Assembly: GCA_035292965.1 (NCBI GenBank)
Contig: DATDPC010000111.1
Coordinates: 1 to 40,644 of the forward strand
Source: Dehalococcoidia bacterium
Lineage (GTDB): Bacteria > Chloroflexota > Dehalococcoidia > DSTF01 > WHTK01
Direction: 5' to 3'
Length of the DNA stretch: 40,644 bases
Shown here: piece after piece, positions 1 to 28,157 of the stretch
How positions within the stretch are numbered: position 1 is the stretch's first letter
Layout of the letters: every line of letters starts with the position of its first letter
Position numbers and translations under genes: made by a program
The notes under the pieces: generated by a model
Told to the model about the DNA's origin: nothing
The model's input: only the letters and a program-made list of their open reading frames with translations
The model's database searches: none

Positions 1-1782
<1,782 letters not shown>

Positions 1783-1787
1783 ATCTC

Positions 1788-2258
1788 TTACCAGCGGTAG
1801 TGGACGAAGGCTCGGTTGGCCTCTGCCATGCGGTGCGTGTCTTCGCGACGCTTTACGGTAGCGCCCTGACCGTTCGCAGCATCCATGAGCTCGCCCGCCA
1901 GCTTCTCCGCCATAGAGCGGCCGCGGCGTGCGCGCGCCGAGCGTACGAGCCAGCGCATCGCCAGGGACACGCGGCGCTCAGCCCGGATATCGACCGGCAC
2001 CTGGTACGTGGCGCCGCCGACGCGCCGGGGCTTCACCTCGACAGCCGGCGTCGCGTTGCGCAGCGCCTGATCGAAGACGTCGATCGCGGGACGGTTCGCC
2101 TGCTCCTCGAGCCTGTCGAGGGCGGCGTAGACGGCGCGTTCCGCCGTGCTCTTCTTGCCGTCGATCATGACCTTGTTGATGAACATCTGCAGCGACTTGC
2201 TGTGATGCTTGCCGTCCGGCGGGATCTCGCGTTTTTCTGCTTTTCCGCGTCGTGCCAT
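1788..2258 (-). CDS. rpsG: 30S ribosomal protein S7
   Basis: 156 aa, [40 protein letters not shown]...HYRW, typical S7. Only 5 nt upstream of fusA. Confidence 0.95.
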
Positions 2259-2260
2259 GA

Positions 2261-2677
2261 CTAGGCGCCGGCCTTTCGCGTGCCGTACTTGCTGCGACCG
2301 CGCTTGCGGTTGGCGACACCGGACGCGTCCAGCGCGCCACGGACGATGTGGTAGCGCACGCCGGCAAGGTCCTTGACGCGACCGCCGCGGATCAGGACGA
2401 CGGAGTGCTCCTGCAGGCTGTGGCCCTCGCCCGGGATGTAGGCCGTGACCTCCATGCCGTTCGTCAAACGAACGCGCGCCACCTTGCGCAGCGCCGAGTT
2501 CGGCTTACGGGGCGTGACCGTCTTCACCTGGACACAGACGCCGCGCTTCTGCGGCGATCCCTTTGTCCAGACGACGGTGTTGTGCAGTGCGTTTGAGCGC
2601 CAGCGCAGCGCCGGCGCCTTCGTCTTGCGAGAAGGAGCCTTTCGCGGGCTGCGCACGAGCTGATTGATCGTTGGCAC
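2261..2677 (-). CDS. rpsL: 30S ribosomal protein S12 (with N-terminal insertion, GTG start)
   Basis: 138 aa, MPTINQLVR...PQKRGVC...[20 protein letters not shown]...[20 protein letters not shown]. Stop is 2 nt from the rpsG start. Confidence 0.95.
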
Positions 2678-2869
2678 TAGTCGATTCCCTTACCTATCTA
2701 TACGAAGAACGCCACGGCTTTGGTCACAATCAGAGGCCGAAAGCCTTATTCCTGAGCCAGCCGGCCTCTCCAAATCGGAGCCTCCTACGGGGTAGGAAGA
2801 CGGCCTGCCGTGGTCACTTTCAGGTGCTTTCGACCCCGAGACCTGCGGTCTAGGGCGTACCAAACGTAA

Positions 2870-2898
2870 AGGCTACTAGCGCCGCGTATCTGTGTCAA
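2870..2898 (-). promoter_or_regulatory. Candidate sigma-70 promoter of the str operon
   Basis: Minus strand TTGACA (2898-2893), 17-nt spacer, TAGCCT (2875-2870). Predicts a ~185-nt structured leader before the rpsL GTG. Confidence 0.35.
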
Positions 2899-3051
2899 CT
2901 CGGCGAGGACGCCAGTGTGGCCTATGCGCAGGCCTCGCGAGGCGCCGGCCAACTACGCAGTTAGCGCCGCCCGTACCGTCTTCTTCCATACAAGAATAGC
3001 ACCATCCGCGGACGACATGCCGCCTGCGCGCGTCCCTCTTCACAGAGCGGC

Positions 3052-3057
3052 TAAACT
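3052..3057 (+). promoter_or_regulatory. Candidate -10 hexamer TAAACT for a leaderless yyaL-like mRNA
   Basis: TAAACT ends 6 nt before the ATG at 3064. No SD in between. Confidence 0.4.
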
Positions 3058-3063
3058 GCCTTC

Positions 3064-5106
3064 ATGGCCAACCGCCTCGCGAACGAGACCAGCCCCTATC
3101 TCCTGCAGCACGCAGACAACCCGGTCGATTGGTACGCCTGGGGCGAAGAGGCGTTTGCGGCGGCGCGAGCGGCGAACAAGCCGATCTTGCTCTCGGTCGG
3201 CTACTCTGCCTGCCACTGGTGCCATGTCATGGCGCACGAGAGCTTCGAGAACGAGACGATCGCCCGGCAGATGAACGAATCGTTCATCAACATCAAGGTC
3301 GACCGCGAAGAGCGCCCCGACGTCGACGCGATCTACATGCAGGCGGTGCAGGCGCTGACCGGCCGCGGCGGCTGGCCGATGACCGTCTTCCTCAAGCCGG
3401 ACGGTGTGCCCTTCTTCGGCGGCACCTACTTCCCGCCCGAGGACCGCGGCGGCATGCGCGGCTTCCCCTTCGTCCTCAGCGCCGTCCTCGAGGCCTACCG
3501 CGAACGCCCCGGCGATATCGACCGCGCCGGCGAGGCGCTGCTGCTGCAGCTCGACGCGCCGGCACGCGTCCGCCCCGGCGACCGCCTGCTCACGACCGAG
3601 GTGCTGGACGCCGCCGCCGAAGCGCTGCTCGCCGCGCACGACCCGATACACGGCGGCTTCGGCGGCGCACCGAAGTTCCCGCAGGCGATGGTCCTCGCCT
3701 TCCTGATGCGCCACTACCACCGCACCAACCGCCCCAGCGTCCTCGAAGCCGTGCGCCGCAGCCTCGATTCGATGGCGCGCGGCGGCATGTACGACCAGGT
3801 CGGCGGCGGCTTCCACCGCTACTCGACCGACGCCGTCTGGCTCGTCCCCCACTTCGAGAAGATGCTCTACGACAACGCCCTGCTCGCCTCCTGCTACCTC
3901 GATGCTTACAAGCTCACCGGCGACGCGTTCTACAAGGGCATCGTCACGCAGACGCTCGATTACGTCCTGCGCGAGATGACCGACCCGGCCGGCGGCTTTT
4001 ACTCGAGCCAGGACGCAGACTCCGAGGGCGAGGAGGGTCGCTTTTTCGTCTGGACGCCGGCCGAGCTCGAAGCCACCCTCGGCGCCGACGCCGAAGCCGT
4101 CGCGCGCTACTACGGCGTCACCCAGGGCGGCAACTTCGAGGGCGCGAACATCCTCAACGTCCCGAAGCCGGAGAACGAACCGCCCGGCCTCGACGCGGCG
4201 CGCGCGAAGCTGTACGAGACGCGAGAACGCCGCGTCCATCCGGCCCGCGACGACAAGGTGCTGACGGCCTGGAACGGCCTCATGCTCCGCGCCTTCGCCG
4301 AAGCGGCCCTCGCCCTCGACGAGCCGCGCTACCGCGAGGCGGCGATTCGCAACGCAGACTTCCTCCTCGGCGCCATGCGACCCGAGGGCCGCTTGCTGAG
4401 GACGTGGAAGGGTGGTACGGCGCACCTGATCGCCTACCTCGAGGACTACGCCTGCCTCGCCGACGGCCTCCTCGCGCTCTACGAAGCAACGTTTGAGGCG
4501 CGCTACCTGACTACCGCCGCGCAGCTCGCCGAGGAGATGATCGACCTCTTCTGGGACGACGAGGCGCAGGGCTTCTTCGACACCGGCCGCGACCACGAAG
4601 CGCTGATCATCCGCCCGCGCGACTTCTGGGACAACGCCACGCCCTCCGGCAACTCTGTCGCCGCCGACGTGCTGCTGCACCTCGCCGCCCTCCTCGACAA
4701 GCCTGACTACGAGACGCGCGCCACGACCTACCTGCGCGCCCTCGCCCCTGTCGTCGAGCAAGCCGCGACCGGCTTCGGCCGCTTCCTCTGCGCCCTCGAC
4801 TTCCACCTCGACCGCGACCACGAGCTCGCCATCGTCTGGCCATCCGGTTCCCCTCTCCCCGCGGGAGAGGGTCAGGGTGAGGGGAGCGCCGCACCGCTTC
4901 TAGACACGGTCCGATCCCGCTACACCCCAAACCTCCTGCTCTTCGGCGGCCCATCGGACGACCCAGCACCGCCGACGCCGCTGCTCGCCGACAAGACGGC
5001 CCTCAACGGCAACGCGGCCGCCTACCTCTGCGAACGCCACGTCTGCCAGGCGCCGACCACCGACCCGTCAGAGCTAACCCGCCAGCTGGACGAAGCCGGC
5101 GTCTGA
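3064..5106 (+). CDS. Thioredoxin-domain protein, DUF255/YyaL family (thioredoxin-like N-domain plus six-hairpin glycosidase-like domain)
   Basis: 680 aa, N-terminus [22 protein letters not shown]...[23 protein letters not shown]...[14 protein letters not shown] is the DUF255 signature. Confidence 0.9.
4848..4886. repeat. Family-A palindromic element (CCCTCTCC-loop-GGAGAGGG followed by CAGGGTGAGG) lying in frame inside the CDS
   Basis: ttcccctctccccgcgggagagggtcagggtgagggg, translated as [12 protein letters not shown]. Same motif recurs at 21138-21179 (reverse) and 21222-21265. Confidence 0.7.
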
Positions 5107-5117
5107 GAGCCTCGAAA

Positions 5118-5201
5118 CGTGGCGCCCTTCGACTAGCTCAGGGAGAGGAAATGAAGCGTCTCTCCCATCTCCCTGAGCCTGTCGAAGGGCGTTACGCCAC
5201 G
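5118..5201. repeat. Family-B hairpin element (MITE/REP-like), copy 1
   Basis: Arms cgtggcgcccttcgactagctcagggag / ctccctgagcctgtcgaagggcgttacgccacg around a ~23-nt loop. Arms and loop resemble 33028-33105 in inverted orientation. Confidence 0.75.
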
Positions 5202-5337
5202 GCGTCTGATGCGCTTCGTGTGTTAGACACGCGACCACCACGAACGCTCGGAGTAAGATCGAACCATACAGAAAGCGCGCCGCCGGTTGGTCAATCCAAG
5301 CACCCCAACGTCAACGGCCAGCCGCGCGAGGACAACA

Positions 5338-5724
5338 ATGCCGGAACAGTACGTTGCCACCGATAAGCGCACCGGCCTCGAGGTCGCCGTCACGGGTTCG
5401 TTCCCGGACCATCCTCAGGACCGCATCCGCATCGCCCGCACGACCAACCTCTTCGCCCGCCTCGCCTCGACGATCCTCTCGATGGACAGCGAGTCGGACC
5501 GCCGCGACGCCTTCATCGCCGTCGAGACGCAGATGGAGCTCGCCGACGCGCTGATCAAGCGCGACCACGAAGAAGTGCAGCGCCTGCTGCAGGAGACGCT
5601 CGCGAAGATGGGCATCTCGCCGGAGCAGATGCGCGAGATCGAAGAGGAGATTCGCCGCCGCATGGGCGGCAGCGAGGGCCCGGGCGAGATCGACGGGCCG
5701 CCCGGCGACGAGCCTCAGACCTAG
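5338..5724 (+). CDS. Hypothetical acidic protein
   Basis: ATG at 5338 preceded by GAGGA (5-nt spacing). The 5287 start in the ORF track lacks an RBS. Its stop TAG directly abuts the ATG of the MFS gene. Confidence 0.55.
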   Translation: MPEQYVATDKRTGLEVAVTGSFPDHPQDRIRIARTTNLFARLASTILSMDSESDRRDAFIAVETQMELADALIKRDHEEVQRLLQETLAKMGISPEQMREIEEEIRRRMGGSEGPGEIDGPPGDEPQT

Positions 5725-7032
5725 ATGGCGCGAACGACCGTCGAGGCGGCCCAGACGGTCGCAGCGCTCGCCGGCGAAGTCATCGACGCGCCGCAACGCA
5801 GCTGGGCCCAGACAACCTTCGACGCGTTCCAGTTCCCTGTCTATCGCACGCTCTGGCTCGGCAGCTTCTTCGCCTTCCTCAGCTTCAACATGGCCGGCAC
5901 GGCGCAGGCCGTCGTCGCCTTCGACCTGACGGGCAGCAACCGCGCCGTCGGCACCGTGATGTTCGGTCAGGGCATCTCGATGCTGCTGCTCAACCCCTTC
6001 GGCGGCGCAATCGCGGATCGATTCTCGAAGCGCTGGCTGATCCTCGTCGCTCAGCTCGTGATCGGCGGCGTCATGCTCGCCTTCGCGATCCTGATCACGA
6101 CAGGCCACATCCGCATCCTCTTCCTCGCGGCCGGCACCTTCATCACCGGGACGATGTTCTCGTTCCTCGGCCCGACGCGTACAGCACTCCTCGGCGATAC
6201 GGTCTCGCCCAACCGGATCGGCAACGCGATGGCGCTGATGCAGGTCGCGAACAACTTCGGGCGCATCGCCGGGCCGTTTTGCGCAGGGCCGGCGCTGGCG
6301 CTGATCGGCTCCGCCGGCACCTACTACCTGATCGCCTCGATCTTCATCCTCGTGCTGATAACGCTCTCGAAGCTGCCGGACCCGCCGCGCGTCACTAGAG
6401 CAGGCGCCAGCGTCCTCGAAGACGTGCGCGGCGCAATCCGCTACGTGGTGAGCCGCAAGCGACTGCTTCACGCCGTGCTGAGCTTCCACCTCGTCATGGT
6501 GATCGGCTTCTCGAACATCGTCGTCATGCCGGGGTTCGCGAAGGACGTGCTGCACTCCGGCAACACCGGCCTCGGCCTGCTGCTCGGCGTTTCGGCGGCG
6601 GGCGGCTTCGTCATGAGCGTGATCGTCGCGTCGCTCGCCGATTCGCGACGGGCGCCGCTGTACCTGACGATCTGCAGCTTCAGCGCCGGCGTGGCGCTCA
6701 TCGTCGTCGGCTTCGCGCCGACGCTGGCGCTGGCGGCGCTGACGATGATCTTCGTCAGCGGCGGGATCAGCGGCTTCCAGACGCTGAACAACGCCTTCGC
6801 CCTGCGCCTGACCGAGATTAGCTACTACGGCCGTGTTGTCGGGCTGATCTTCATGGCCTGGGGGATGATCAACCTGATGAGCCTGCCCGTAGGCTTCTTC
6901 GCCGACGCGTACGGCGAGCGAACCGTCCTCACCGGCTCCGGCATCTTGCTCTGCATCACGGTGCTGCTGCTGGCGCTGACCCGCCCGCCGGCTGAAGACG
7001 ACTTGCCGAACGTGGTTCAGTCGACCGCGTAG
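5725..7032 (+). CDS. MFS transporter (MFS_3 / enterobactin-exporter-like)
   Basis: 435 aa, about 12 hydrophobic segments. Motif GGAIADRFSKRW after TM2 is typical of MFS loop 2-3. Confidence 0.8.
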   Translation: MARTTVEAAQTVAALAGEVIDAPQRSWAQTTFDAFQFPVYRTLWLGSFFAFLSFNMAGTAQAVVAFDLTGSNRAVGTVMFGQGISMLLLNPFGGAIADRFSKRWLILVAQLVIGGVMLAFAILITTGHIRILFLAAGTFITGTMFSFLGPTRTALLGDTVSPNRIGNAMALMQVANNFGRIAGPFCAGPALALIGSAGTYYLIASIFILVLITLSKLPDPPRVTRAGASVLEDVRGAIRYVVSRKRLLHAVLSFHLVMVIGFSNIVVMPGFAKDVLHSGNTGLGLLLGVSAAGGFVMSVIVASLADSRRAPLYLTICSFSAGVALIVVGFAPTLALAALTMIFVSGGISGFQTLNNAFALRLTEISYYGRVVGLIFMAWGMINLMSLPVGFFADAYGERTVLTGSGILLCITVLLLALTRPPAEDDLPNVVQSTA

Positions 7033-7601
7033 GCCGTGCTCGCCGCCGCTTCACGTCGAAACGCGCTCGCGAACTCCCAGAGGCCGAAGAACACCGACGT
7101 GTAGAAGAGATCGCCCAGCAGCGTCCCTCTAAAGAACGGTAACCCCGCGACGTAGCTCTCCCAGAGGCCGTTGATCCCGCGGTCGTACGCGCCGGCCGCC
7201 CAGACGCCGGCGTTGGTGATCAGGAAGAACTGCAGCGAACAAAACACGGTCGCGACGCCGATCACGCCCGGCGATCGGCGCCCCTTGAGGAACCAACCGG
7301 CGAGCGCCGAGAGCGCGAACGAGCCGTAGACGTACGGCAGCGTTGTGTGCCACAGCGCCCACGGCTCGTAGACGTGGTTCAGGTGCAGGCCGCTGTACGG
7401 GCTGACGTAGAGCAGCAGGTAGTCGCTGATCAGCAGCGTCACGCCGAGCGCCGCGAACGAGACGCGACGGTTCATGTAAGCGCCGCAGAACAACGCCGAC
7501 GCCGTCACCGGCGCGAAGTTCGGCAGGTGCGGCAGCAGACGCCCGGCAACGCCAATCGCGACGAGAGCAAGGACGACGAACAGGGTCTCATACTTAGTCA
7601 T
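7017..7601 (-). CDS. Small polytopic membrane protein with LPNFAPV motif (resembles DUF6580 family; recalled from memory)
   Basis: 194 aa, 5-6 predicted TM segments. N-terminus GRLLPHLPNFAPVTASALFCGAY, later ITNAGVW...YVAGLPFF. RBS GAGG upstream. Last gene of the nrdAB transcription unit. Confidence 0.6.
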   Translation of the reverse strand: MTKYETLFVVLALVAIGVAGRLLPHLPNFAPVTASALFCGAYMNRRVSFAALGVTLLISDYLLLYVSPYSGLHLNHVYEPWALWHTTLPYVYGSFALSALAGWFLKGRRSPGVIGVATVFCSLQFFLITNAGVWAAGAYDRGINGLWESYVAGLPFFRGTLLGDLFYTSVFFGLWEFASAFRREAAASTAYAVD

Positions 7602-7633
7602 GGCTTACCTCGGCAGCATAGCGAAAATCGGCG

Positions 7634-7671
7634 GCGCCGCCATCCCCGCGATCAGGCATCGATGGCGGCGC
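7634..7671 (-). terminator. Hairpin between the DUF4430 and membrane-protein genes; possible partial terminator/attenuator
   Basis: Perfect 11-bp stem gcgccgccatc/gatggcggcgc with 16-nt loop. On the minus-strand RNA it is followed by CGCCGAUUUUCGC (short, displaced U tract). Confidence 0.3.
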
Positions 7672-7681
7672 GCCGAGCGCC

Positions 7682-8119
7682 TCAGAACGAGGAGTACTTG
7701 AACGACAGCACATCGCCGTCCTTGACGACGTAGTTGCCCGCGCCGACGTCGGACGACTTGCCGTTGACGCTGAACTCCCAGAAGTGGTTGCCCTCCGCGA
7801 TAACGCCGAAGAAGCCGGTGATGAAGACGCCGAGGTCGCCGCCGAAGTCCTTCGTCGAGACGTTGGCGGAGCCGAGCGCCTGCTGAATCGCCAGCAGCGC
7901 CTTGCCGTCGCTAGCGATCGCGAACGGCGCCTCGACTTTCGCCTTTTGCGTCGGCGCGCCCGTGAAGTCGATGACGACGGTGCCCTTGACCTGCGCCTGC
8001 GACGCGATCGTCGCCGTCGCGTTGGGCGATGAGCCGTTGTCGTTGTCGGAGCAGGCGGCGCCGAGCCAGATGATCGGGAGCAGGGCAACGAGCAGGAATA
8101 GACGTAGCTTCGAGCTCAA
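7682..8119 (-). CDS. Secreted/lipoprotein with DUF4430 (transcobalamin-like C-terminal) domain
   Basis: 145 aa, TTG start with GAGAGGAA RBS. Signal peptide plus LGAAC lipobox-like site. C-terminal half GVFITGFFGV...HFWEFSVNGKSSDVGAGNYVVKDGDVLSFKY matches the DUF4430 pattern (G-F-V-x-x-I-x-G...W-x-y-x-v-N-G...GD-x-i-x-f-x-Y). Confidence 0.75.
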   Translation of the reverse strand: MSSKLRLFLLVALLPIIWLGAACSDNDNGSSPNATATIASQAQVKGTVVIDFTGAPTQKAKVEAPFAIASDGKALLAIQQALGSANVSTKDFGGDLGVFITGFFGVIAEGNHFWEFSVNGKSSDVGAGNYVVKDGDVLSFKYSSF

Positions 8120-8136
8120 GAAACGGTTCCTCTCTT

Positions 8137-9171
8137 CTAAAACGGCGCGTCCAGCACAACCTCGCCGACGACACCGACCTGGTAGGCGGAGACGCGACGT
8201 TCGAAGAAGTTCGCCAGCTCCTGCACGTCCTGCAGGTCCATGAACGAGAACGGGTTGCGCGCGCCGTAGCGCCGCTCGAGGCCCAGGCGCGCGAGGCGCT
8301 GGTCGGCGCAGAACTCAAGGTACTGCCGCATATCGCGCGTCGACAGTCCCGCAACGCCGAGGCCGAGCAGGTCTTCGGCGAACTGCATCTCGCAGTCGAC
8401 GGCGTCCTCGACCATCTTGTACACGGCGGCCGCCAGGCCGTCGTCGAATAGCGCCGGCTCCTCGCGCCGCACCGTATCGACTACCTCAAACGCGAAGGCC
8501 ATGTGAGCGCTCTCGTCGCGGAACACCCAGTTCGTGCCGGCGGCGAGGCCGTGCAGCAGCCCGCGCGAGCGCAGGAAGTAGACGTAGGCAAAAGCCCCGA
8601 AGAAGAACAGCCCCTCGATGCAGGCAGCGAAGCAGATCAGGTTGAGCAAGAAGCGCCGCCGCTCCTCGATCGTCTCGAGGCGGTCGAGGTCGTCGATCGA
8701 GTCAAGCCAGCGCAGGCAGAAGTCGCCCTTGCGCCGAATTGAGGGGATGTTCTCCAGGGCCGCGAAGGCGCGGAAGCGCTCCTCCGGCTCCTGCATGTAG
8801 GTATCGAGCAAGGTCAGGTAGAAGTCAACGTGCTGCGCCTCCTCAAACAGCTGGCGTGAGAGGTACATGCGTGCCTCCGGTGCGTTGACGTGCTTGTACA
8901 GGTTGAGCACAAGGTTGTTCGAGACGATCGAGTCCCCTGTAGCGAAGAAGGCTACGAGGCGCTGAATCAGGTGACGTTCCGGATCCGTCATCTTGCGCTG
9001 CAGGTCGCTCACGTCGGTCGAGAAGTCGACCTCTTCGACCGTCCAGGTGTTCTTGATAGCCGCCTTGTACATCTCGTAGAAGGCCGGGTAGTACATCGGA
9101 CGCAGCGTCAGGCAGAGGCCGGGATCGAGCAGGTGCTCGGGGCGGGTGACGGACGACGATTGTGTGGTCAC
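8137..9171 (-). CDS. nrdB: Ribonucleotide reductase class I beta subunit
   Basis: 344 aa. Metal ligands FFATGDS, EEAQHVDFY (Tyr at His+4), CIEGLFFF, RDESAHM. 4-nt overlap with nrdA. Confidence 0.9.
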   Translation of the reverse strand: MTTQSSSVTRPEHLLDPGLCLTLRPMYYPAFYEMYKAAIKNTWTVEEVDFSTDVSDLQRKMTDPERHLIQRLVAFFATGDSIVSNNLVLNLYKHVNAPEARMYLSRQLFEEAQHVDFYLTLLDTYMQEPEERFRAFAALENIPSIRRKGDFCLRWLDSIDDLDRLETIEERRRFLLNLICFAACIEGLFFFGAFAYVYFLRSRGLLHGLAAGTNWVFRDESAHMAFAFEVVDTVRREEPALFDDGLAAAVYKMVEDAVDCEMQFAEDLLGLGVAGLSTRDMRQYLEFCADQRLARLGLERRYGARNPFSFMDLQDVQELANFFERRVSAYQVGVVGEVVLDAPF

Positions 9172-11624
9172 TGGCAGGCCTCGCAGGTCTCCGGGTTCTC
9201 GAGCGAGCAGGCGATCGCATCCGCATCACTCATCTCGACGACGGCTAACGGCACGGAAGCAACGGCAGGCGGCAATGCGATCACGGGCGCCACAGTCTCG
9301 ACCGTCGCCTTGGCGATGCGTGTCGCCGGGCGTGAGCGCAGGTAGTAGGTCGTCTTCAGGCCCTTCTTCCAGGCGTAGAAGTACATCGACGAGAGCTGGC
9401 CGATGTTCGGGCTCTCGGCGAAGAGGTTGAGCGACTGGCTCTGATCGATGAAAGCGCCGCGGTCCGCCGCCATGTCAATCAGGCCGCTCATCGGCAGCTC
9501 CCAGGCTGTGCGGTAGACGGCGCGCAGATCCGCCGGCAGCTCCTCAAAGTCCTGGACGGAGCCCTCGGCGAGCTTGAGGCGGTTGCGCGTCTCCGCCGTC
9601 CAGACGCCGAGCGACTTCAGCTCTTCGATCAGGTAGCGGTTGACCTGAAGAAAGTCGCCGGAGAGCGTCTCTCGTTTGAACAGGTTCGATACCTGCGGCT
9701 CGATGCACTCGGAGCAGCCGGCGATCGACGCGATCGTCGCCGTCGGCGCGATCGCGACCAGCAGCGAGTTGCGCAGGCCGCTGCGCTCGATCCGCTCTCG
9801 CAGCCCGTCCCAGCGCTCGCGATCCGTGGGCACGACGTCCCAGGCGTCGAACTGCAGCTCGCCGCGGGCGGCTCGCGTCTCGGCGAAGGCGGCGTGGACG
9901 CCCTTCTCTTCCGCCAAGTCGGCCGAGGCGAAGAGGGCGTGGTAGTAGATCTCCTCCGAGATCTGACGCGACAGCTCGCGGGCCTGGGGCGCGTCGAAAG
10001 GCAGGCGCATCTGGAAGAAGACGTCCTGTAGCCCCATCAGCCCGAGGCCGACGGGACGCCAGCGGTTGTTCGAGGCGCGGGCGGTGTCGATCGGGTAGAA
10101 GTTGAGGTCGATCACGTTGTCGAGCTGCCGCACGGCGATGCGCACGCTGCGAGCCAGCTTGTCGAAGTCGAAGTGAACCGCGCCGTCCTCATCGAGGAAG
10201 GTGTGGCGCGCCAGGTTGATCGAGCCGAGGTTGCAGACCGCGGTCTCGCCCTCGTTCGTCACCTCGATGATCTCGGTGCAGAGGTTGGAGCTGTGGACGA
10301 CGCTGCCAGGCAGCGCCGTCTGGTTGGCGGCGGCGTTGCACTTGTCCTTGAAGGTCATCCAGCCGTTGCCGGTCTGCGCCAGCGTCCGCATCATCCGGGC
10401 GTAGAGGTCGCGGGCGCGCAGCGTCTTCAGCGCCAGGCCGGCCGCTTCTGCCTCCTCGTAGGCCTTGTCGAACGCTTCGCCGTAGAGGTCGGTCAGGTTC
10501 GGCGCCACCTTCGGGTCAAACAGCGACCAGTCTCCGTCCACTTCGACGCGGCTCATGAACAGGTCCGGCACCCAGTTCGCGAGGTTGAGGTTGTGCGTCC
10601 GCCGCGCCTCGTCGCCGGTGTTGTCGCGCAGCTCGAGGAACTCCTCGAAGTCGCCGTGCCACGGTTCGAGGTAGACGCAGGCCGCGCCCTGGCGCTTGCC
10701 TCCCTGGTTCACCGCCGCTACGGACGCGTCCAGCGTCTTCAGCCACGGCACGATGCCGTTCGAGTGGCCGTTCGTCCCCGCGATCAGCGAGCCGCGCGAC
10801 CGCACGCGGTGAAACGCCACGCCGATGCCGCCGGAGAACTTCGAGAGCATGGCGATGTCTGTATAGCGCTCGTAGATCGCGCGCAGGTCGTCCGCCGGCG
10901 AGTCGAGCAGGAAGCAGCTCGAAAGCTGCTCGTGACTCGTGCCGGCGTTGAACAGCGTCGGTGAGCTTGGGATGTATTCGAGGTTCGAGAACAGGTCGTA
11001 GAGGCTGAGCACGCCGGCCACCGTCTCGCCGAGGGCACAAGCGATGCGCAGGAAGAACTGCTGCGGCGTCTCGATCACAAGGCGCGTCTCCGGGTGCTTC
11101 AGCAGATAACGGTCGTAGAGCGTGCGCAGACCGAAGTACTCAAACTCGCGGTCGCGCTCCGGGACGATCGCGTCGTTGAGCTTCCGCGCGTTCTCGGCGA
11201 CGAAGCAGGCGACGCGATCGTTGATGATGCCGAGGCGGTGGCCGGTAGTGATCGATTGGGAGAAGGCGTGTATTTCCTGGTTGCGCACCTCCTTGTCGAT
11301 GTAGGTCGCGAGCAGGCGCGCCGCCAACCGTGAGTAATGCGGCTCCTCGACGATGAGTGCCGCCGCCGTCTGGATCGAGAGGCGGTCGAGCTCGCGTGTC
11401 GTGGCGCCGTCGTAGAGGCCGCTGATCGTCTTGGTGGCGATGCGCATCGCATCGACGTCGTCAAGGCCGACGCAGCAGCGGCTGACGGCGCGGACGATCT
11501 TGTTGACATCGACCGGCTCGCTGCCGCCGTTGCGCTTCGTGACGCGCATCGTCGTCTGCACGTCGACCTCGTGCGGCGGCTTTTCGGGACTCAGGGGCAT
11601 AGCAGGCGGGGTTTGGCTGACCAT
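9168..11624 (-). CDS. nrdA: Ribonucleotide reductase class I alpha subunit with N-terminal ATP-cone
   Basis: 818 aa. VTKRNGGSEPVDVNKI (ATP-cone), NLCTEI active-site region, C-terminal CEAC redox tail. RBS GAGGAAGGAAG. Confidence 0.92.
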   Translation of the reverse strand: MVSQTPPAMPLSPEKPPHEVDVQTTMRVTKRNGGSEPVDVNKIVRAVSRCCVGLDDVDAMRIATKTISGLYDGATTRELDRLSIQTAAALIVEEPHYSRLAARLLATYIDKEVRNQEIHAFSQSITTGHRLGIINDRVACFVAENARKLNDAIVPERDREFEYFGLRTLYDRYLLKHPETRLVIETPQQFFLRIACALGETVAGVLSLYDLFSNLEYIPSSPTLFNAGTSHEQLSSCFLLDSPADDLRAIYERYTDIAMLSKFSGGIGVAFHRVRSRGSLIAGTNGHSNGIVPWLKTLDASVAAVNQGGKRQGAACVYLEPWHGDFEEFLELRDNTGDEARRTHNLNLANWVPDLFMSRVEVDGDWSLFDPKVAPNLTDLYGEAFDKAYEEAEAAGLALKTLRARDLYARMMRTLAQTGNGWMTFKDKCNAAANQTALPGSVVHSSNLCTEIIEVTNEGETAVCNLGSINLARHTFLDEDGAVHFDFDKLARSVRIAVRQLDNVIDLNFYPIDTARASNNRWRPVGLGLMGLQDVFFQMRLPFDAPQARELSRQISEEIYYHALFASADLAEEKGVHAAFAETRAARGELQFDAWDVVPTDRERWDGLRERIERSGLRNSLLVAIAPTATIASIAGCSECIEPQVSNLFKRETLSGDFLQVNRYLIEELKSLGVWTAETRNRLKLAEGSVQDFEELPADLRAVYRTAWELPMSGLIDMAADRGAFIDQSQSLNLFAESPNIGQLSSMYFYAWKKGLKTTYYLRSRPATRIAKATVETVAPVIALPPAVASVPLAVVEMSDADAIACSLENPETCEACQ

Positions 11625-11663: not shown

Positions 11664-11775
11664 TTGGTCGGAGATCGAAAAGCGACCCGGCAACCGAATT
11701 GCCACGCCGCTCGTATCCGCCGGCTGGCCCTCCCTCGAGGCCTCCAGGATCGAGCTGCCGCCGGTTTTCTCTCCG

Positions 11776-11962
11776 GTGGCAGATGCTGGCAGGTCTTCGG
11801 GCTTACAGGCGCTTCTCGCTCAGCGAGGCTCCCTACTCTCCACGACTTCCCGGCCGTCCGACGGTCAGTGTCTTTGTGTGGATTCGTTCCTGTTTACCGC
11901 TGCGGGGCAGCCCTGGAATCTCACCGGGTTCCCTTTTCGCCCGATACGCGGGCAACCAGCAC
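11776..11962 (-). promoter_or_regulatory. Cobalamin (B12) riboswitch aptamer
   Basis: Minus strand reads GGUUGCC...AAAAGGGAACCCGGUGAGAUUCCAGGGCUGCCCCGCAGCGGUAA...CACUG...CGGGAAGUCG...GCCCGAAGACCUGCCAGC. These are the conserved core and B12 box of the cobalamin riboswitch family. Confidence 0.85.
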
Positions 11963-11967
11963 GGCAC

Positions 11968-11996
11968 ACACTAGACCCAAGATATAGTGCTGTCAA
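11968..11996 (-). promoter_or_regulatory. Candidate nrd operon promoter
   Basis: Minus strand TTGACA (11996-11991), 17 nt, TAGTGT (11973-11968). Confidence 0.5.
11975..11990 (-). promoter_or_regulatory. NrdR box (proximal)
   Basis: GCACTATATCTTGGGT matches about 12/16 of the acaCwAtATaTwGtgt consensus. It occupies the -35/-10 spacer. Confidence 0.6.
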
Positions 11997-13273: not shown

Positions 13274-13846
13274 CTAGGCAGCAGCGCTGCGAGTCTTTTG
13301 ACCACCGCGCTCGATGAGAGCGTTGGACGGCTCAGAGGCTGGGTGCATTACTTTGCGAGCCGCTTCCGCGCCCGTGACGGGAAGACCGGTCGCATCGAGC
13401 AGTCCAACTTGAGCCAGGACGGATGCCTGGTCCCAGTAGATGCGCTCACCGGCGATCTTATCGCCCTCGAACTCGACCACGGCAACAAGGGCGACTTCAA
13501 CCTTCTTGCCGGTAGGCGGCACGCCGGGCAGGATCCATGGCATTTCTATGTCGTGAGTGAAGCTGTGGATGAGCTCCTCGACGATCCGCTGGGAGCCCAC
13601 GGTACGTGCGACCGGCAGGGAGACCGTGTCGTCTGGATGACCGGGCAGAAAGAAGCGGCGATAGAAGCTGCGTACGTTGTCGAAGCCAACCCCACCTGTC
13701 ATCACGGGGACGTGGTTGACGAAGGGATTCGCTGTCATGGTTGGCATAGTGGCATCCACGTCCTTCTCGGCAAACTCGGCGGTGATGTGTCGCTCCCAGG
13801 CGGCGACCATAGCTTGCTGCAGGGGCGTGAGCTCAATCTCGTTCAT
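13274..13846 (-). CDS. SnoaL-like / NTF2-superfamily protein
   Basis: ATG at 13846 preceded by GAGAGGA. Sequence of about 190 aa resembles SnoaL-like cyclase/ester-cyclase family members (IYWDQASVLAQVGLL). Confidence 0.6.
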   Translation of the reverse strand: MNEIELTPLQQAMVAAWERHITAEFAEKDVDATMPTMTANPFVNHVPVMTGGVGFDNVRSFYRRFFLPGHPDDTVSLPVARTVGSQRIVEELIHSFTHDIEMPWILPGVPPTGKKVEVALVAVVEFEGDKIAGERIYWDQASVLAQVGLLDATGLPVTGAEAARKVMHPASEPSNALIERGGQKTRSAAA

Positions 13847-14339: not shown

Positions 14340-14366
14340 CGCCGCCTTGTTGGCGGCGTTTTCGTT
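14340..14366 (+). terminator. Intrinsic terminator
   Basis: cgccgcc-ttgtt-ggcggcg followed by ttttcgtt. Confidence 0.6.
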
Positions 14367-15087
14367 ACGCCGCGTAGGTGGGCTCGAAGCGGCTCTGCGA
14401 TGTGTGGTGGCTGGTCGCGCCGAGGTAGATGCCGGCCGCAATCATGATCAGCGCCGCCTCCGCCGCGCTCAGCACGCCGATGAAGAAGACGATGCTCTCC
14501 CAGAAGTCCGGCGGGAACATCTGGATCAGGTGGTCTGTCGCCGGGTTCAGGCGCCAGAAGTCGTTCGAGAAGATCAGCTCGTGGAAGCTCGTCCAGGCGC
14601 TGTCGAAGCCGGCGAAGCTAACGCCCGCGGCGACGCCCAGGGTCGCCATCGCGATGCCGCACCCTCCGAGCACGTATCCCGCCAGCTGACGTGTCGTTAC
14701 CTCCCCCGCCCACAGGACGACGACGGCCATATACGCGATCAGGTAGACGACGCTGAGCTCCTGGACCCGGTTGACGAGCCGGAAGCGGCTCTTCACGTCC
14801 TTCATGTGCTGCGTCTCTTGCGGGTTGAACAGGCTGGTCTCTTTGCCGTTCTGGCTGACGCGGATGTTCAGCGTCTGCTCGCCGTTGTTGAAGTAATCGC
14901 GGATCTCACCGCCGGCGCGCAGCAGCTCGTTGCGCGAAATGCCCGTCGCGGCGACGCCGCCGAAGTCATCGACCGCGTAGCGATAAACGCGCGGCTCATT
15001 CGCGACGAAGCGGATGTTCGTCGTGATCAGCGCAACCGGGATCATCAGGAGAAAGAGGACGGTGGCGAGACCGCGAGCGACGCCCAA
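14365..15087 (-). CDS. TIGR01906/DUF1461 integral membrane protein (Lit-like lipoprotein intramolecular transacylase family)
   Basis: 240 aa, TTG start after GGAGG. N-terminal TM, then FHELIFSNDFWRLNPATDHLIQMFPPDFW, typical of DUF1461. Confidence 0.7.
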   Translation of the reverse strand: MGVARGLATVLFLLMIPVALITTNIRFVANEPRVYRYAVDDFGGVAATGISRNELLRAGGEIRDYFNNGEQTLNIRVSQNGKETSLFNPQETQHMKDVKSRFRLVNRVQELSVVYLIAYMAVVVLWAGEVTTRQLAGYVLGGCGIAMATLGVAAGVSFAGFDSAWTSFHELIFSNDFWRLNPATDHLIQMFPPDFWESIVFFIGVLSAAEAALIMIAAGIYLGATSHHTSQSRFEPTYAA

Positions 15088-21313: not shown

Positions 21314-21365
21314 GGCGCCGTATTTCAGTACGCGGAGGCGAATCGAACCAGGGCTGTCCCACGCA

Positions 21366-21512
21366 AGCGCCAGGTCCTTCACCGGCGAGGTGGAGGATGA
21401 CGAGGCAGAGGCTGTTCGAAATACTCGGCGGGGAGCCTCTCGGCTGCACGGTCGTTACGGACGGACAAAACGGCGGGCGCAAGCCCCCGACAAATCCGCC
21501 ACCGGTGTGCAA
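21366..21512 (+). ncRNA. glmS leader: glmS glucosamine-6-phosphate-activated ribozyme
   Basis: A/GCGCCAGG...CCGGCGAGGUGGAGGAUGACGAGGCAGAGGCUGUUCGAAAUACUCGGCGGGGAGCCUCUCGGCUGCACGG... matches the conserved glmS ribozyme core (AGCGCC, GACGAGG, GUUCGAAA, CUCGGCGG, CGGCUG). It lies directly 5' of glmS. Confidence 0.85.
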
Positions 21513-21627
21513 CGCCCCGATGTATCGGGGCGCTAACTCCTGACCAGCCCTCCCTTCATTCGCGAACCGCTTTGACCCGCGGCCGGTTCGGCGTGCCTGA
21601 CGCTGCGCCCGCCGGGTGGAGGCGCCC

Positions 21628-23469
<1,842 letters not shown>

Positions 23470-25571: not shown

Positions 25572-27059
25572 TTAGGCCGCCGAAATCGCCGCCGAGGGTG
25601 CGTTCTGCTCGATGTCGTCGAGGAGGACGCGGAACCAGTCGCGTAGGTCGCGCGAGCGGACGACGGCGCGCAGGCGCTTCGCACGCTCGTGGCGCTCCTC
25701 GATCGGCATCATCAGCGCCTCATAGAGCGCGTTCGCGGTTCCCTTAACGTCCTTCGGGTCGATGCCGATCGCGGCGCAGCCGAGCTCGGCGTAGGCGCCG
25801 GCCGCCTTCGAGAGCACGAGCACGCCGTCGTGCATATTCACCATCGGCGCCTCTTTGGCGACGAGGTTCATGCCATCCGCTAGCGGGTTGACGAGCAGCA
25901 CGTCGGCCAGCGACATGGCGGCGAGGCCCTGGATCCGGTTGTGCTCGAAGAAGACGCGGATCGGCTTCCAGTGCAGGTTGCCAAAGCGGCGGTTGATCTC
26001 GCTGGCGAGCGAGTGCGTCTCGTACTGATAGCGCTGGTAGATCTCGATGTCAGACTTGGACGGCACCAGCTGGGCGATGAAGCTGACCTTGTCGCGCAGC
26101 TCCGGGTGTTTCTCGAGCAGCAGCGCGTACGCCTCGAAGCCGCGGACGACGTTCTTCGTCGGGTCGAGGCGGTCGACACGGACGATCGTCTTCTGGCCGC
26201 GCTCCGGTCGCAGCAGGTATCGGTAGCGCGAAAACTCAGGCGAAGCGGACGCCTCCTCGAGCTCCTCCGGGTCGACGGAGATGCCGTTCGCCCAGACGCG
26301 CGTCGTGTGGCCCTGGAACTCGACCGTGCCGGCCTCGATGTCGGTCACGGCGCCCGGGAGGAACCGCTCGCAGGTGGCGATGAAGTTGTGCGCCGAGCCG
26401 GGCGTCTGAAAGACGAGGCTGTCGTTCGCGGCAAGGCCGCCGCAAATCTCCGCCATCGTGTAGTTGCGCAGACGGGCCCACTCCTTCGGCTCCGGCCAGG
26501 GGATGTGGATGAAGTGCTGCAGGTAGACCTCGGGGCGCTGCTGTCGTACGAGCCTCGGCACGAGGTAGAAGTGATAATCGTGGATCACGATGGCGCGAAA
26601 CTCGCCCGTGTCCCACTCGTCGACGATCGCCTTGGCGAACGCCTTGTTCACCGGGATGTAGCCCTCGATGCGGCCGCGACGGCGTCGCTCCAGGGTGAGG
26701 TCTTTCGGCCAGGGCATACCGTGCTGGAGGAACCAGAGGACCTCGTTCGCGAAGGTGCCGTAGAACAGCTCGTACTGCTCCGGGTCCGTGAGGACGAAGT
26801 GCGCCGATCCGTTGTTCTCCGGCGGCGGCGCGATCTCTTTCGCGGCGATTGCGCGGTCGATGTCGGTGAGCGGGCTCGAGAGCCAGACGGCGGGGTGGAG
26901 CTGGGCGGCGACGCGCAGGGCGTTCGAAAGGCCGCCCGTACCGGCTTCGGCGACGATTTCGCCCGCGGCGTCACGGTGAAACTCAAAGGGGCCTCGGTTG
27001 CTGACGGTGAGGATCTTGCCGGCGGCGGCACGCTTGCGCCTCGTCATCGCCTGGGTCAC
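25572..27059 (-). CDS. otsA: Alpha,alpha-trehalose-phosphate synthase (GT20)
   Basis: 495 aa. VSNRGPFEF...GGLSNAL, IHDYHF, LVNPLADGMNLVAKE. Confidence 0.9.
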   Translation of the reverse strand: MTQAMTRRKRAAAGKILTVSNRGPFEFHRDAAGEIVAEAGTGGLSNALRVAAQLHPAVWLSSPLTDIDRAIAAKEIAPPPENNGSAHFVLTDPEQYELFYGTFANEVLWFLQHGMPWPKDLTLERRRRGRIEGYIPVNKAFAKAIVDEWDTGEFRAIVIHDYHFYLVPRLVRQQRPEVYLQHFIHIPWPEPKEWARLRNYTMAEICGGLAANDSLVFQTPGSAHNFIATCERFLPGAVTDIEAGTVEFQGHTTRVWANGISVDPEELEEASASPEFSRYRYLLRPERGQKTIVRVDRLDPTKNVVRGFEAYALLLEKHPELRDKVSFIAQLVPSKSDIEIYQRYQYETHSLASEINRRFGNLHWKPIRVFFEHNRIQGLAAMSLADVLLVNPLADGMNLVAKEAPMVNMHDGVLVLSKAAGAYAELGCAAIGIDPKDVKGTANALYEALMMPIEERHERAKRLRAVVRSRDLRDWFRVLLDDIEQNAPSAAISAA

Positions 27060-27865
27060 GCCGTTCCCTCCTCCAGCTGCGCGGCGAGCGAGGCGAGGAT
27101 CGCCTCCACGCCTTCGACACCGGCGACGGTTGTGTCCGCCGCCTCGTAGACCATCGCGTCTGTCTCTGCGTCTGTTACGGCGACAGCGAGGCCCGGCAGG
27201 CCGTCTTCGCTGCGCCGTCGCGCTATCGCCCTGAACACGGCCGCGTCCGAAAGGTCATCGCCGATGAAGACGACACCGCGTATGCCGTGGTCGCGCAGCA
27301 GCCGCGCAACGGCGACGCTCTTGTCCGGCAGGCCGGCCGGCACCAACTCCAGCACCTGCTTGCCCTGTACGACACGCGCCCCCTCCGACTGCGCCAGCGG
27401 CGCCACGACCGTCAGAAGACGCTCGCCGACGGTTGCGTCATCGCAGTTGCGGTAGTGGAGCGAGAACGACACGCCCTTTGGTTCTATTTCGACGCAGGGG
27501 AAGTCGGCCAGCAAGGGCCGTACGGCCTCTTCCGCGGCGACGGCGTCGAAGCCGCCGGTCTCGTGCTGCGTCTCGTCGTCGATCGCGTACTGACCGACGT
27601 AGGTGACGTCGTCAAGGCCGACCATGCGCCTCGCCACGTCGCGCTCCCGTCCGGTGACGATGGCGACGAGGTCGATCTTGCGCGCGAGGCGTCGCAGGCT
27701 CTCGCGCGCCGAATCGCTGACGACGGCGTCTTCTGGGCGCGCGACGATGCGGCTGATCGTCCCGTCGATGTCGGTGATCAGGGCAGAGGGACGCTCCGAC
27801 AGCACGTCCGCGACGAGGCCAACCGTGTTCTCAACGGCGTTCATGTTTTGTCCGGGTAGGAGCAT
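27056..27865 (-). CDS. otsB: Trehalose-6-phosphate phosphatase (HAD-IIB)
   Basis: ALITDIDGTIS (DxDGT) and VFIGDDLSD motifs. 4-nt overlap with otsA. Alternative start at 27844. Confidence 0.85.
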   Translation of the reverse strand: MLLPGQNMNAVENTVGLVADVLSERPSALITDIDGTISRIVARPEDAVVSDSARESLRRLARKIDLVAIVTGRERDVARRMVGLDDVTYVGQYAIDDETQHETGGFDAVAAEEAVRPLLADFPCVEIEPKGVSFSLHYRNCDDATVGERLLTVVAPLAQSEGARVVQGKQVLELVPAGLPDKSVAVARLLRDHGIRGVVFIGDDLSDAAVFRAIARRRSEDGLPGLAVAVTDAETDAMVYEAADTTVAGVEGVEAILASLAAQLEEGTA

Positions 27866-28157
27866 CGCTTGTAAGGATGATCGGCAGATACGCCGCCGCA
27901 GGCAACGGACATTGCATTTTCCTTTCAGGGGCTTACGAGGTTAGCTGTCGGGTTAGGGTCTGAAAGTACCCCGGGCCGCCATTGCGACCCCACACCCCGT
28001 CCGTTGGTTCCCCCGTTCCCCCTTCTTTCGAAGAAGAGGGATTCGGCCACGTTGCCGTGGAGGCAACGTCTTACTTTACACCGCGCATAGCCCGCTTGAT
28101 AGGACGCATAGGTTGCATTGATGTTAATAAGCGGATAAAGCGCCTAACGGGCCGCCT

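Follow-up and report, generated by a model that had tools for sequence, protein, structure and literature searches.

A DUF4430 lipoprotein and a DUF6580 membrane protein encoded behind a cobalamin riboswitch in a Dehalococcoidia bacterium: a candidate corrinoid uptake module

Two genes appended to a riboswitch-preceded nrdAB operon

We analyzed a 40,644-nucleotide stretch of DNA (the window in the following; G+C 66%) from a Dehalococcoidia bacterium of the phylum Chloroflexota (GenBank assembly GCA_035292965.1, contig DATDPC010000111.1, positions 1–40,644), in which the genes for a DUF4430 lipoprotein and a DUF6580 membrane protein—referred to here as the pair—follow the ribonucleotide reductase (RNR) genes nrdA and nrdB behind a cobalamin riboswitch. 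We think it probable that the pair forms a module for the uptake of corrinoids (vitamin B12). Only about half of the B12-auxotrophic bacteria are predicted to have BtuCDF, and most of the membrane proteins responsible for B12 uptake await identification (PMC6072759).

The operon lies on the minus strand, where a promoter-like element, the riboswitch, a terminator-like hairpin, nrdA, nrdB, the lipoprotein gene and the DUF6580 gene follow one another (Table 1). For the riboswitch and the genes, this is the order given in a preliminary description, made from the sequence without database searches, which had placed all four genes on one strand behind a single cobalamin riboswitch. The riboswitch matches the Rfam family RF00174 over its full length (model positions 1–189 of 189; 99.9 bits, gathering score 31.5, E 5.6e-24), and is located 147 nt upstream of nrdA on the same strand. 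The hairpin downstream of the aptamer may serve as the expression platform, in which case it would attenuate the operon as a whole. As the TAGTGT hexamer fits the −10 consensus at just three of six positions, the promoter-like element was not listed by a consensus scan.

The nrdA product scores 711 bits with TIGR02506 (NrdE_NrdA; cutoff 341) and remains below the cutoff of the B12-dependent NrdJ_Z family (354.9 versus 399.95). With an alpha subunit containing the RNR barrel and a separate ferritin-like beta subunit, whose gene overlaps the nrdA stop codon by 4 nt, nrdAB encode a class I, B12-independent RNR. The 17-nt gap to nrdB leaves no room in the window for a riboswitch belonging to the pair alone, and the pair sits behind the long nrdAB riboswitch. 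The simplest reading of this arrangement is that the pair was recruited into the nrdAB transcript, creating a single regulon for low B12 that is turned off by the vitamin. The spacer between the genes of the pair contains a small hairpin that may cause partial attenuation of transcription or set the product ratio; six terminator-like sites were found compared with 3.0 ± 2.1 in shuffled sequences, and the spacer hairpin alone is not significant. A convergent major facilitator superfamily (MFS) gene closes the operon. No gene for an ATP-binding cassette (ABC) ATPase, EcfT, BtuCD or a TonB receptor was detected in the operon or among about 25 other open reading frames (ORFs) of the window that were scanned.

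Families and predicted folds of the two proteins

Both proteins exceed the gathering thresholds of the Pfam families that had been suggested for them. The lipoprotein matches PF14478 (DUF4430) at residues 75–143 (E 4.4e-11; 43.5 bits, cutoff 23.8), and thus in its C-terminal half, as foreseen. Its N-terminus, MSSKLRLFLLVALLPIIWLGAAC-S, comprises a signal peptide and the lipobox WLGAAC, as read directly from the sequence rather than from a dedicated predictor, and the lipobox residue Cys23 is kept in at least 90% of 35 homologues. The window also encodes a homologue of Lit (lipoprotein intramolecular transacylase) 6 kb from the pair, so that lipoproteins of this host, including the DUF4430 protein, may be present in the lyso form.

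In the AlphaFold2 model of the lipoprotein, a disordered linker extending to about residue 40 precedes a confident core (predicted local distance difference test, pLDDT, 94–98). When this model was compared with the PDB using Foldseek, the best 19 matches were all transcobalamin, haptocorrin, intrinsic factor or the bacterial DUF4430 structure 3u7z. The top match was the beta domain of human transcobalamin (5no0, apo; 5np4, cyanocobalamin-bound; E 8.6e-7, probability 1.00), with a template modelling (TM) score of 0.80 normalized to the 105-residue target domain. The fold proposed in the preliminary description is therefore borne out by the model, and is the same as that of the beta domains in 2bb5, 2pmv and 4kki. 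A profile of the 35 homologues searched against the PDB likewise matched haptocorrin (TCN1, E 5.7e-4) and transcobalamin (TCN2), and the motifs FWE/FWQ and Y-x-V/P-KDGD/E-x-L/I-x-F/L in the C-terminal part are common to the lipoprotein and the transcobalamin family. We discarded as spurious the top phmmer matches of the lipoprotein in the PDB, which are RecA fusion chains. The idea that BtuH, a Bacteroides B12 binder, contains DUF4430 was also dropped, as the BtuH paper does not refer to a DUF, a Pfam family or a kinship with transcobalamin.

The lipoprotein differs from the transcobalamin proteins in that it has only 145 residues, consists of the beta domain alone and is just 14–18% identical in sequence; the alpha6-alpha6 barrel half is missing from the pair of the window genome, whereas 28 other loci have a separate SQHop_cyclase_C-like gene (see below). 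Judged by fold and sequence, the label "transcobalamin-like" thus appears justified for the beta half only. The beta domain fold of transcobalamin recognizes the nucleotide side of complete cobalamin, and the isolated human beta domain has been crystallized with cyanocobalamin (entry title of 5np4). On the basis of the modelled fold, we propose the lipoprotein as an extracellular B12 capture protein.

The second protein, which had been described as a 194-residue membrane protein with an N-terminal LPNFAPV motif and tentatively named DUF6580, indeed belongs to this family (PF20221; E 8e-42; 143.7 bits, cutoff 27; profile positions 6–156 of 162) and matches no other Pfam family; its NCBI name is 'DUF6580 family putative transport protein'. 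The family comprises 5,535 clusters at 50% identity (E up to 0.001), with 592 confirmed matches in species-representative genomes. Its longer members contain no extra Pfam domains, and thus no domain fusions were seen. Within the family, the motif R21-x2-P24-H25-x-P-N28-F-A-P31 of the window protein shows little or no variation, and the conserved residues are R21, P24, H25, N28, P31, D60, Y92, N130, W134, Y139, G145 and L146. The AlphaFold2 model (pLDDT 91.5, predicted TM score 0.83) has six long helices. Since the loops MNRR (43–46) and KGRRS (106–110) are positively charged, as is the C-terminal FRRE, both termini would be cytoplasmic by the positive-inside rule, and the conserved residues would then map to the three outward-facing loops and helix ends. 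By analogy with BtuM, these are the places where S-components, the substrate-binding subunits of energy-coupling factor (ECF) transporters, would bind their substrates.

For the DUF6580 model, Foldseek ranked hydroxycobalamin-bound BtuM first (8ovv; probability 1.00, TM 0.59/0.64, 18% identity), ahead of the ECF S-components FolT, PanT, RibU and ThiT. The predicted structure thus has the six-helix, S-component-like fold. The claim of the preliminary description that the unit contains no BtuFCD, ECF-CbrT, BtuB or BtuM-type gene holds by sequence, but is misleading with respect to BtuM because DUF6580 itself resembles BtuM in its predicted fold. BtuM of Thiobacillus denitrificans is a solitary, S-component-like B12 transporter that was identified by its co-localization with btuB, has cytoplasmic termini, ligates cobalt through an invariant cysteine (Cys80), accepts cobinamide and chemically modifies its substrate (PMC6072759). 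Like BtuM, DUF6580 proteins are small membrane proteins of about 190–200 residues with six helices and, as judged from the positive loops, cytoplasmic termini; they also have relatives beside BtuB-like receptors and no ATPase in the operon. However, Cys80 is replaced by no DUF6580 counterpart, while DUF6580 has a near-invariant His25 and an invariant D60 and N130. Moreover, BtuM is found mostly in Proteobacteria, and no partner lipoprotein has been reported for it, whereas DUF6580 occurs in Chloroflexota, Patescibacteria, Bacteroidota and Omnitrophota, usually together with DUF4430.

Conserved context in related loci

To place the pair in a wider context, we surveyed the best 80 tblastn loci among the 592 DUF6580 relatives, most of them from Patescibacteria (the candidate phyla radiation, CPR), with some from Chloroflexota and Bacteroidota and one from Omnitrophota. 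The DNA covered comprised 40 kb of the window genome, about 14 kb per related locus and 943 kb in the nhmmer scan. A DUF4430 gene is located upstream of DUF6580 in 53 of the 80 loci, directly and on the same strand in 32 and with one alpha-barrel gene between them in 21, and five further loci are cut by the contig end. Iterated nhmmer profiles, which are prone to drift, detected 67 B12-riboswitch-like elements, 66 of them on the DUF6580 strand; by this count, a riboswitch lies upstream of DUF6580 with only same-strand genes between in 51 of the 80 loci, and about 12 of the remaining 29 end near the DUF6580 gene. Both the pairing and the riboswitch linkage that the preliminary description had proposed to look for were thus recovered.

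Spot checks with Rfam at the expected place gave scores at or above the gathering score in 24 of 30 loci and below it in five more, only L006 being unmatched (Table 1). Twelve of these loci, all positive for AdoCbl-II, serve as confirmation rather than as an independent sample, because they were picked for high nhmmer scores. A strict B12-box regular expression, which found just the riboswitch of the window, proved too narrow for the differing variants of Chloroflexota and Patescibacteria and was replaced by the nhmmer profiles and Rfam.

In the closest Chloroflexota loci (L001–L005, 55–65% identity), a short riboswitch with a length of about 140 nt lies directly before DUF4430-DUF6580, and nrdAB are absent. 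Three of these (L001, L003 and L005) have a convergent ORF of 430–440 codons after DUF6580, in the position of the MFS gene of the window. Typical orders in Patescibacteria are nrdR-nrdJ-DUF4430-DUF6580-pduO and nrdR-nrdJ-pduO-DUF4430-DUF6580. The class II, B12-dependent RNR NrdJ is encoded nearby in 29 loci (TIGR02504, NrdJ_Z; 560–584 bits against a cutoff of 400) and the adenosyltransferase PduO, which passes its own cutoff, in 22. In the Gram-negative loci (Bacteroidota and Omnitrophota), DUF6580 stands next to or behind a TonB receptor under riboswitch control; the best match of this receptor is TonB-B12, and a DUF5074 beta-propeller usually accompanies it. These links to NrdJ, PduO and BtuB-like receptors had not been anticipated and strengthen the case for a B12-related function.

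No ABC ATPase or EcfT/CbiQ domain was present in any of the 68 unlabelled downstream neighbours (68 of 68 negative), and none is encoded adjacent to DUF6580 in the 80 loci. In four loci (L009, L010, L058 and L061), DUF6580 is directly followed by a BtuF/IsdE-like Peripla_BP_2 protein, with no cognate ABC permease or ATPase among the identified neighbours; perhaps it serves the DUF6580 carrier as another capture protein. In a Saccharibacteria locus (L077), a radical S-adenosylmethionine enzyme with a B12-binding domain is encoded directly after DUF4430-DUF6580.

A squalene-hopene-cyclase-type alpha-barrel protein of 410–450 residues with SQHop_cyclase_C repeats is encoded in 28 loci, in many of those from Patescibacteria between DUF4430 and DUF6580, and in L006 the alpha barrel is fused to the DUF4430 domain in a protein of 676 residues. 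By sequence, the alpha barrel and the DUF4430 protein would be separately encoded halves of a transcobalamin-like protein.

Several loci resemble known B12 systems. CbrT, a proven B12 S-component, is encoded in the nrdJ-cbrS-cbrT-pduO cluster of Lactobacillus delbrueckii, requires the EcfAA'T module, encoded elsewhere and shared, as well as ATP, and forms an ECF transporter that also accepts cobinamide (PMC5997447). This succession of an RNR gene, a small extra gene (cbrS), an S-component-type carrier and PduO is the order of many Patescibacteria loci; in the window, by contrast, the RNR is class I and B12-independent and the operon is riboswitch-controlled. CbrT itself was absent from the 50 best fold matches of the DUF6580 model and gave no sequence match. 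As a DUF4430 gene adjoins rtpR in Lactobacillus rhamnosus (PMC9963975), the cbrS product is, by analogy, probably a DUF4430 protein. Within RNR/PduO clusters, the cbrS-cbrT genes are a named, uncharacterized precedent for combining a small extracytoplasmic protein with a carrier of the S-component type.

The position of the riboswitch in the window has a counterpart in Streptomyces nrdABS: a B12 riboswitch reportedly controls the class I genes there, and the same organisms possess a B12-dependent RNR as well. Both arrangements have a cobalamin riboswitch before nrdA-nrdB, so that the B12-independent RNR would be made in the absence of B12; they differ in that the window appends two B12 uptake candidates to the same transcript. 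In Bacteroides, the inner-membrane step of B12 uptake is usually assigned to BtuFCD, a position that DUF6580 would take in four of the surveyed Bacteroidota loci (L057, L073, L074 and L080). There, a riboswitch-controlled TonB receptor and a DUF5074 beta-propeller adjoin DUF6580, a combination that may parallel the BtuB-BtuG systems for B12 capture at the outer membrane of Bacteroides (PMC10404256).

Beside the DUF6580 operon, nine loci listed in Table 1 encode proteins of 417–533 residues that have neither a Pfam family nor an obvious signal peptide, each behind a B12-riboswitch-like element of its own. The element of L064 reaches 51 bits with the Cobalamin family, and the others score below the gathering score or were detected by nhmmer only. 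These proteins are not all alike, L064, L067, L069 and L062 forming one group and L070, L063 and L045 a second; they may be B12-independent enzymes or B12-handling proteins.

Some database labels call for caution. The contig of L074, labelled Synechococcus sp. UW140, has the order riboswitch-DUF6580, riboswitch-TonB receptor-DUF5074 and riboswitch sequences close to those of the Chitinophagaceae locus L080, and may be mis-binned. Records labelled 'uncultured Gammaproteobacteria' (e.g., L009, L010 and L026) carry Patescibacteria-like operons and may be mislabelled.

Further elements were noted in the same DNA. A c-di-AMP riboswitch (68 bits) directly precedes a trehalose-phosphatase gene in the window, next to which lies a gene resembling GT20 trehalose-6-phosphate synthases, an arrangement that suggests control by c-di-AMP of the synthesis of trehalose, an osmoprotectant. 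A glmS ribozyme (60.9 bits) lies upstream of a 617-codon ORF that is GlmS-sized, as judged by length alone. A Levyibacteriota locus (L046) contains a group I intron (90 bits) near tRNA genes.

Table 1. Features of the window and of the related loci, with Rfam matches at the expected riboswitch position
Sequence	Feature	Position	Strand	Remark
Window	Promoter-like element	11968..11996	-	TTGACA / 17 nt spacer / TAGTGT; putative, read from the sequence; directly upstream of riboswitch
Window	Cobalamin riboswitch aptamer	11771..11975	-	RF00174 Cobalamin, long classical form; Rfam match
Window	Terminator-like hairpin and T-rich tail	11678..11704	-	7-pair stem TGGCAATTCGGTTGCCG then GGTCGCTTTT; between aptamer end (11771) and nrdA ATG (11624)
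Window	nrdA, class I RNR alpha subunit	9168..11624	-	ATP-cone, Ribonuc_red_lgN, Ribonuc_red_lgC
Window	nrdB, class I RNR beta subunit	8137..9171	-	PF00268 Ribonuc_red_sm, E 7.4e-79
Window	DUF4430 lipoprotein gene	7682..8119	-	145 aa; begins 17 nt past nrdB stop
Window	DUF6580 membrane protein gene	7017..7601	-	194 aa; begins 80 nt past lipoprotein gene
Window	Small GC hairpin and ATTTTCG	7629..7642	-	In 80-nt spacer between pair genes; weak consensus match to terminator
Window	MFS gene	5725..7032	+	Convergent; overlaps operon 3' end by 16 nt
Window	Lit homologue	14365..15087	-	
Window	c-di-AMP riboswitch	27915..28058	-	
Window	Trehalose-phosphatase gene	27056..27865	-	
Window	GT20 trehalose-6-phosphate-synthase-like gene	25572..27059	-	Behind c-di-AMP riboswitch
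Window	glmS ribozyme	21355..21510	+	
Window	617-aa ORF	21616..23469	+	
L001-L005, L057, L074, L080	Rfam Cobalamin			At or above gathering score
L043	Rfam Cobalamin			80 bits
L064	Rfam Cobalamin			51 bits
L026	Rfam AdoCbl-II			55 bits
L040	Rfam AdoCbl			51 bits
12 of 12 loci of one test set	Rfam AdoCbl-II			At or above gathering score
L009, L044, L070, L014, L062	Rfam AdoCbl-II, AdoCbl or Cobalamin			Below gathering score
L009	Alpha-barrel protein	5721..6977		
L006	Alpha barrel fused to DUF4430	4934..6964		
L009	Peripla_BP_2 protein	7567..8496		
L077	Radical S-adenosylmethionine enzyme	1152..2576		
L064	417-533-aa protein	7591..8964		
L067	417-533-aa protein	7675..8928		
L069	417-533-aa protein	7678..8931		
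L052	417-533-aa protein	5990..7288		
L038	417-533-aa protein	3598..4944		
L062	417-533-aa protein	4778..6124		
L070	417-533-aa protein	8209..9612		
L045	417-533-aa protein	5453..6967		
L014	417-533-aa protein	2525..4126		
L046	Group I intron	13357..13548		

A proposed role in corrinoid uptake

Taken together, the riboswitch linkage, the conserved pairing, the B12-related neighbours, the predicted folds, the cbrS-cbrT precedent and the lack of a nearby ATPase strongly support, on computational grounds, a role of the pair in B12 uptake, the comparative genomics being the decisive evidence. DUF6580 would be best classed as a B12 carrier of the S-component type that represents a new sequence family and has a transcobalamin-like partner.

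From these data we infer how B12 would be bound, handed over and moved, and how the movement would be driven. The lipoprotein, anchored on the outer face of the cytoplasmic membrane, would capture B12 through its transcobalamin-beta-type domain and pass it to an outward-facing pocket of the six-helix DUF6580 protein, which the conserved extracellular loops (R21-P24-H25-N28-P31, D60 and N130-W134-Y139) may form. DUF6580 would then carry B12 through the membrane, probably by toppling as has been proposed for S-components, and once inside the cell B12 could be trapped through adenosylation (by PduO in the relatives) or through binding to enzymes. In the window, the pair would be co-transcribed with nrdAB behind one cobalamin riboswitch with its terminator-like platform. 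Since a single riboswitch precedes all four genes, low B12 would switch on both the B12-independent RNR and B12 scavenging, and high B12 would switch both off.

Several points weigh against this proposal. The Foldseek E-value of DUF6580 with BtuM is only 0.05 at a TM score of about 0.6, and neither phmmer nor a 30-sequence profile searched against the entire PDB, including BtuM, gave a sequence match of DUF6580 to BtuM, CbrT or any solved protein (E up to 10). The invariant cobalt-ligating cysteine of BtuM has no counterpart, as sets of 30 and 84 DUF6580 sequences contain no cysteine that is invariant or reaches 90% conservation; the near-invariant H25 is the obvious candidate for a cobalt ligand, although this is speculation. 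Given the lack of sequence homology and of the invariant cysteine, DUF6580 falls outside the BtuM family and, by sequence, does not demonstrably belong to any S-component family. The 80 loci are best matches dominated by metagenome-assembled genomes of Patescibacteria, so that the percentages do not come from random sampling of the family. In the window, the pair would be under B12 control through co-transcription with nrdAB, which the 17-nt gap suggests, and the substrate could be a corrinoid precursor instead of complete B12. Finally, experiments on DUF6580 proteins or on bacterial DUF4430 proteins were not found in the searchable literature.

The preliminary description had interpreted the pair as a B12-responsive binder and carrier coupled to the B12-independent RNR and operating without an ATPase. 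Fold and context uphold the core of this interpretation; operation without an ATPase is only one possibility, because DUF6580 has the predicted fold of an S-component, and many of these subunits, CbrT among them, depend on a shared ECF module whose genes lie elsewhere. It is accordingly possible, though in our view doubtful, that DUF6580 is a conventional ECF S-component that docks on a shared EcfA/A'/T module encoded elsewhere for ATP-driven uptake of the same substrate. The ranking of FolT, PanT, RibU and ThiT behind BtuM among the fold matches is in keeping with this, as is the typical scattering of Group II S-components away from the module, exemplified by the nrdJ-...-pduO cluster of CbrT, which lacks the ATPases. 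Two of 84 DUF6580 members weakly match ECF_trnsprt and ECF-ribofla_trS (E 0.0017 and 0.003), but we rejected these sub-threshold hits as a sequence link to the ECF S-component Pfam families, and they are no better than matches to unrelated membrane families. Against this reading stands the lack of an adjacent EcfT or ABC ATPase in the window and the 80 loci. Likewise, the AxxxA motif, which S-components use for docking on EcfT, is found in helix 1 of the window protein (A15-x3-A19) but is not conserved in the family alignment. Moreover, DUF6580 of Bacteroidota and Omnitrophota can be found behind BtuB-like receptors, the context in which solitary BtuM was found (PMC6072759). Provided that the pair does take up B12, stand-alone and ECF-dependent operation are roughly equally likely.

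It is improbable that the pair handles a related molecule or step, i.e., cobinamide or another precursor, the lower ligand, or the decyanation or retention of B12 on the periplasmic side, instead of net B12 import. Both BtuM and ECF-CbrT accept cobinamide, BtuM modifies its own substrate, and riboswitch control does not discriminate among corrinoids. However, the neighbours identified around the pair in the Patescibacteria loci are NrdJ, NrdR and PduO only; as no cobamide assembly gene was identified there, a precursor would be of little use, and the recognition of the nucleotide side of complete cobalamin by transcobalamin beta domains also argues for the whole vitamin. A function outside B12 traffic altogether, sparing B12 as nrdAB and metE do, for example by the uptake of deoxynucleosides or a metal, is very improbable: although the pair of the window shares an operon with a B12-independent RNR, some riboswitch-repressed genes encode B12-independent isozymes, and the B12-traffic role is a computational prediction, the pair is found near the B12-dependent NrdJ and near PduO rather than near B12-independent enzymes, stands beside BtuB-like receptors in Gram-negatives, and consists of two proteins whose folds point to cobalamin binders.

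The statement that the pair had not been characterized as a B12 transporter agrees with the literature searched (open-access papers and bioRxiv only, so that a description elsewhere is possible), in which DUF6580, PF20221 and PF14478 are not mentioned; the arrangement is, however, less unprecedented than was implied, considering the L. delbrueckii cluster and the DUF4430-rtpR neighbourhood of L. rhamnosus. Among the papers found on BtuM and cobalamin, none appears from title and abstract to describe the DUF6580 family, and the papers listed that join cobalamin, ribonucleotide reductase and riboswitches show nothing on this family and do not mention Patescibacteria.

An uptake role of the pair also allows a bolder proposal, which we offer tentatively and consider rather unlikely as it stands: DUF6580 would be a new and very widespread class of ATP-independent B12 carrier that works with a bacterial "split transcobalamin", serves as the main route of B12 entry in Patescibacteria/CPR and many Chloroflexota, and represents a prokaryotic forerunner of transcobalamin and intrinsic factor. 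The parts of this split protein are the DUF4430 beta-domain lipoprotein and, in many Patescibacteria, the separate alpha-barrel protein.

DUF6580 proteins form a large uncharacterized family concentrated in hard-to-culture, cofactor-dependent and often uncultured lineages—Patescibacteria/CPR, Dehalococcoidia and other Chloroflexota, and environmental Bacteroidota—and their function can be tested by the existing E. coli complementation assay that was used for BtuM and CbrT. If the pair does import B12, the bacterial DUF4430 and alpha-barrel proteins would gain a function related to that of human transcobalamin, much of the gap in our knowledge of B12 uptake would be filled, and the capacity for B12 uptake within microbial communities could be predicted better.

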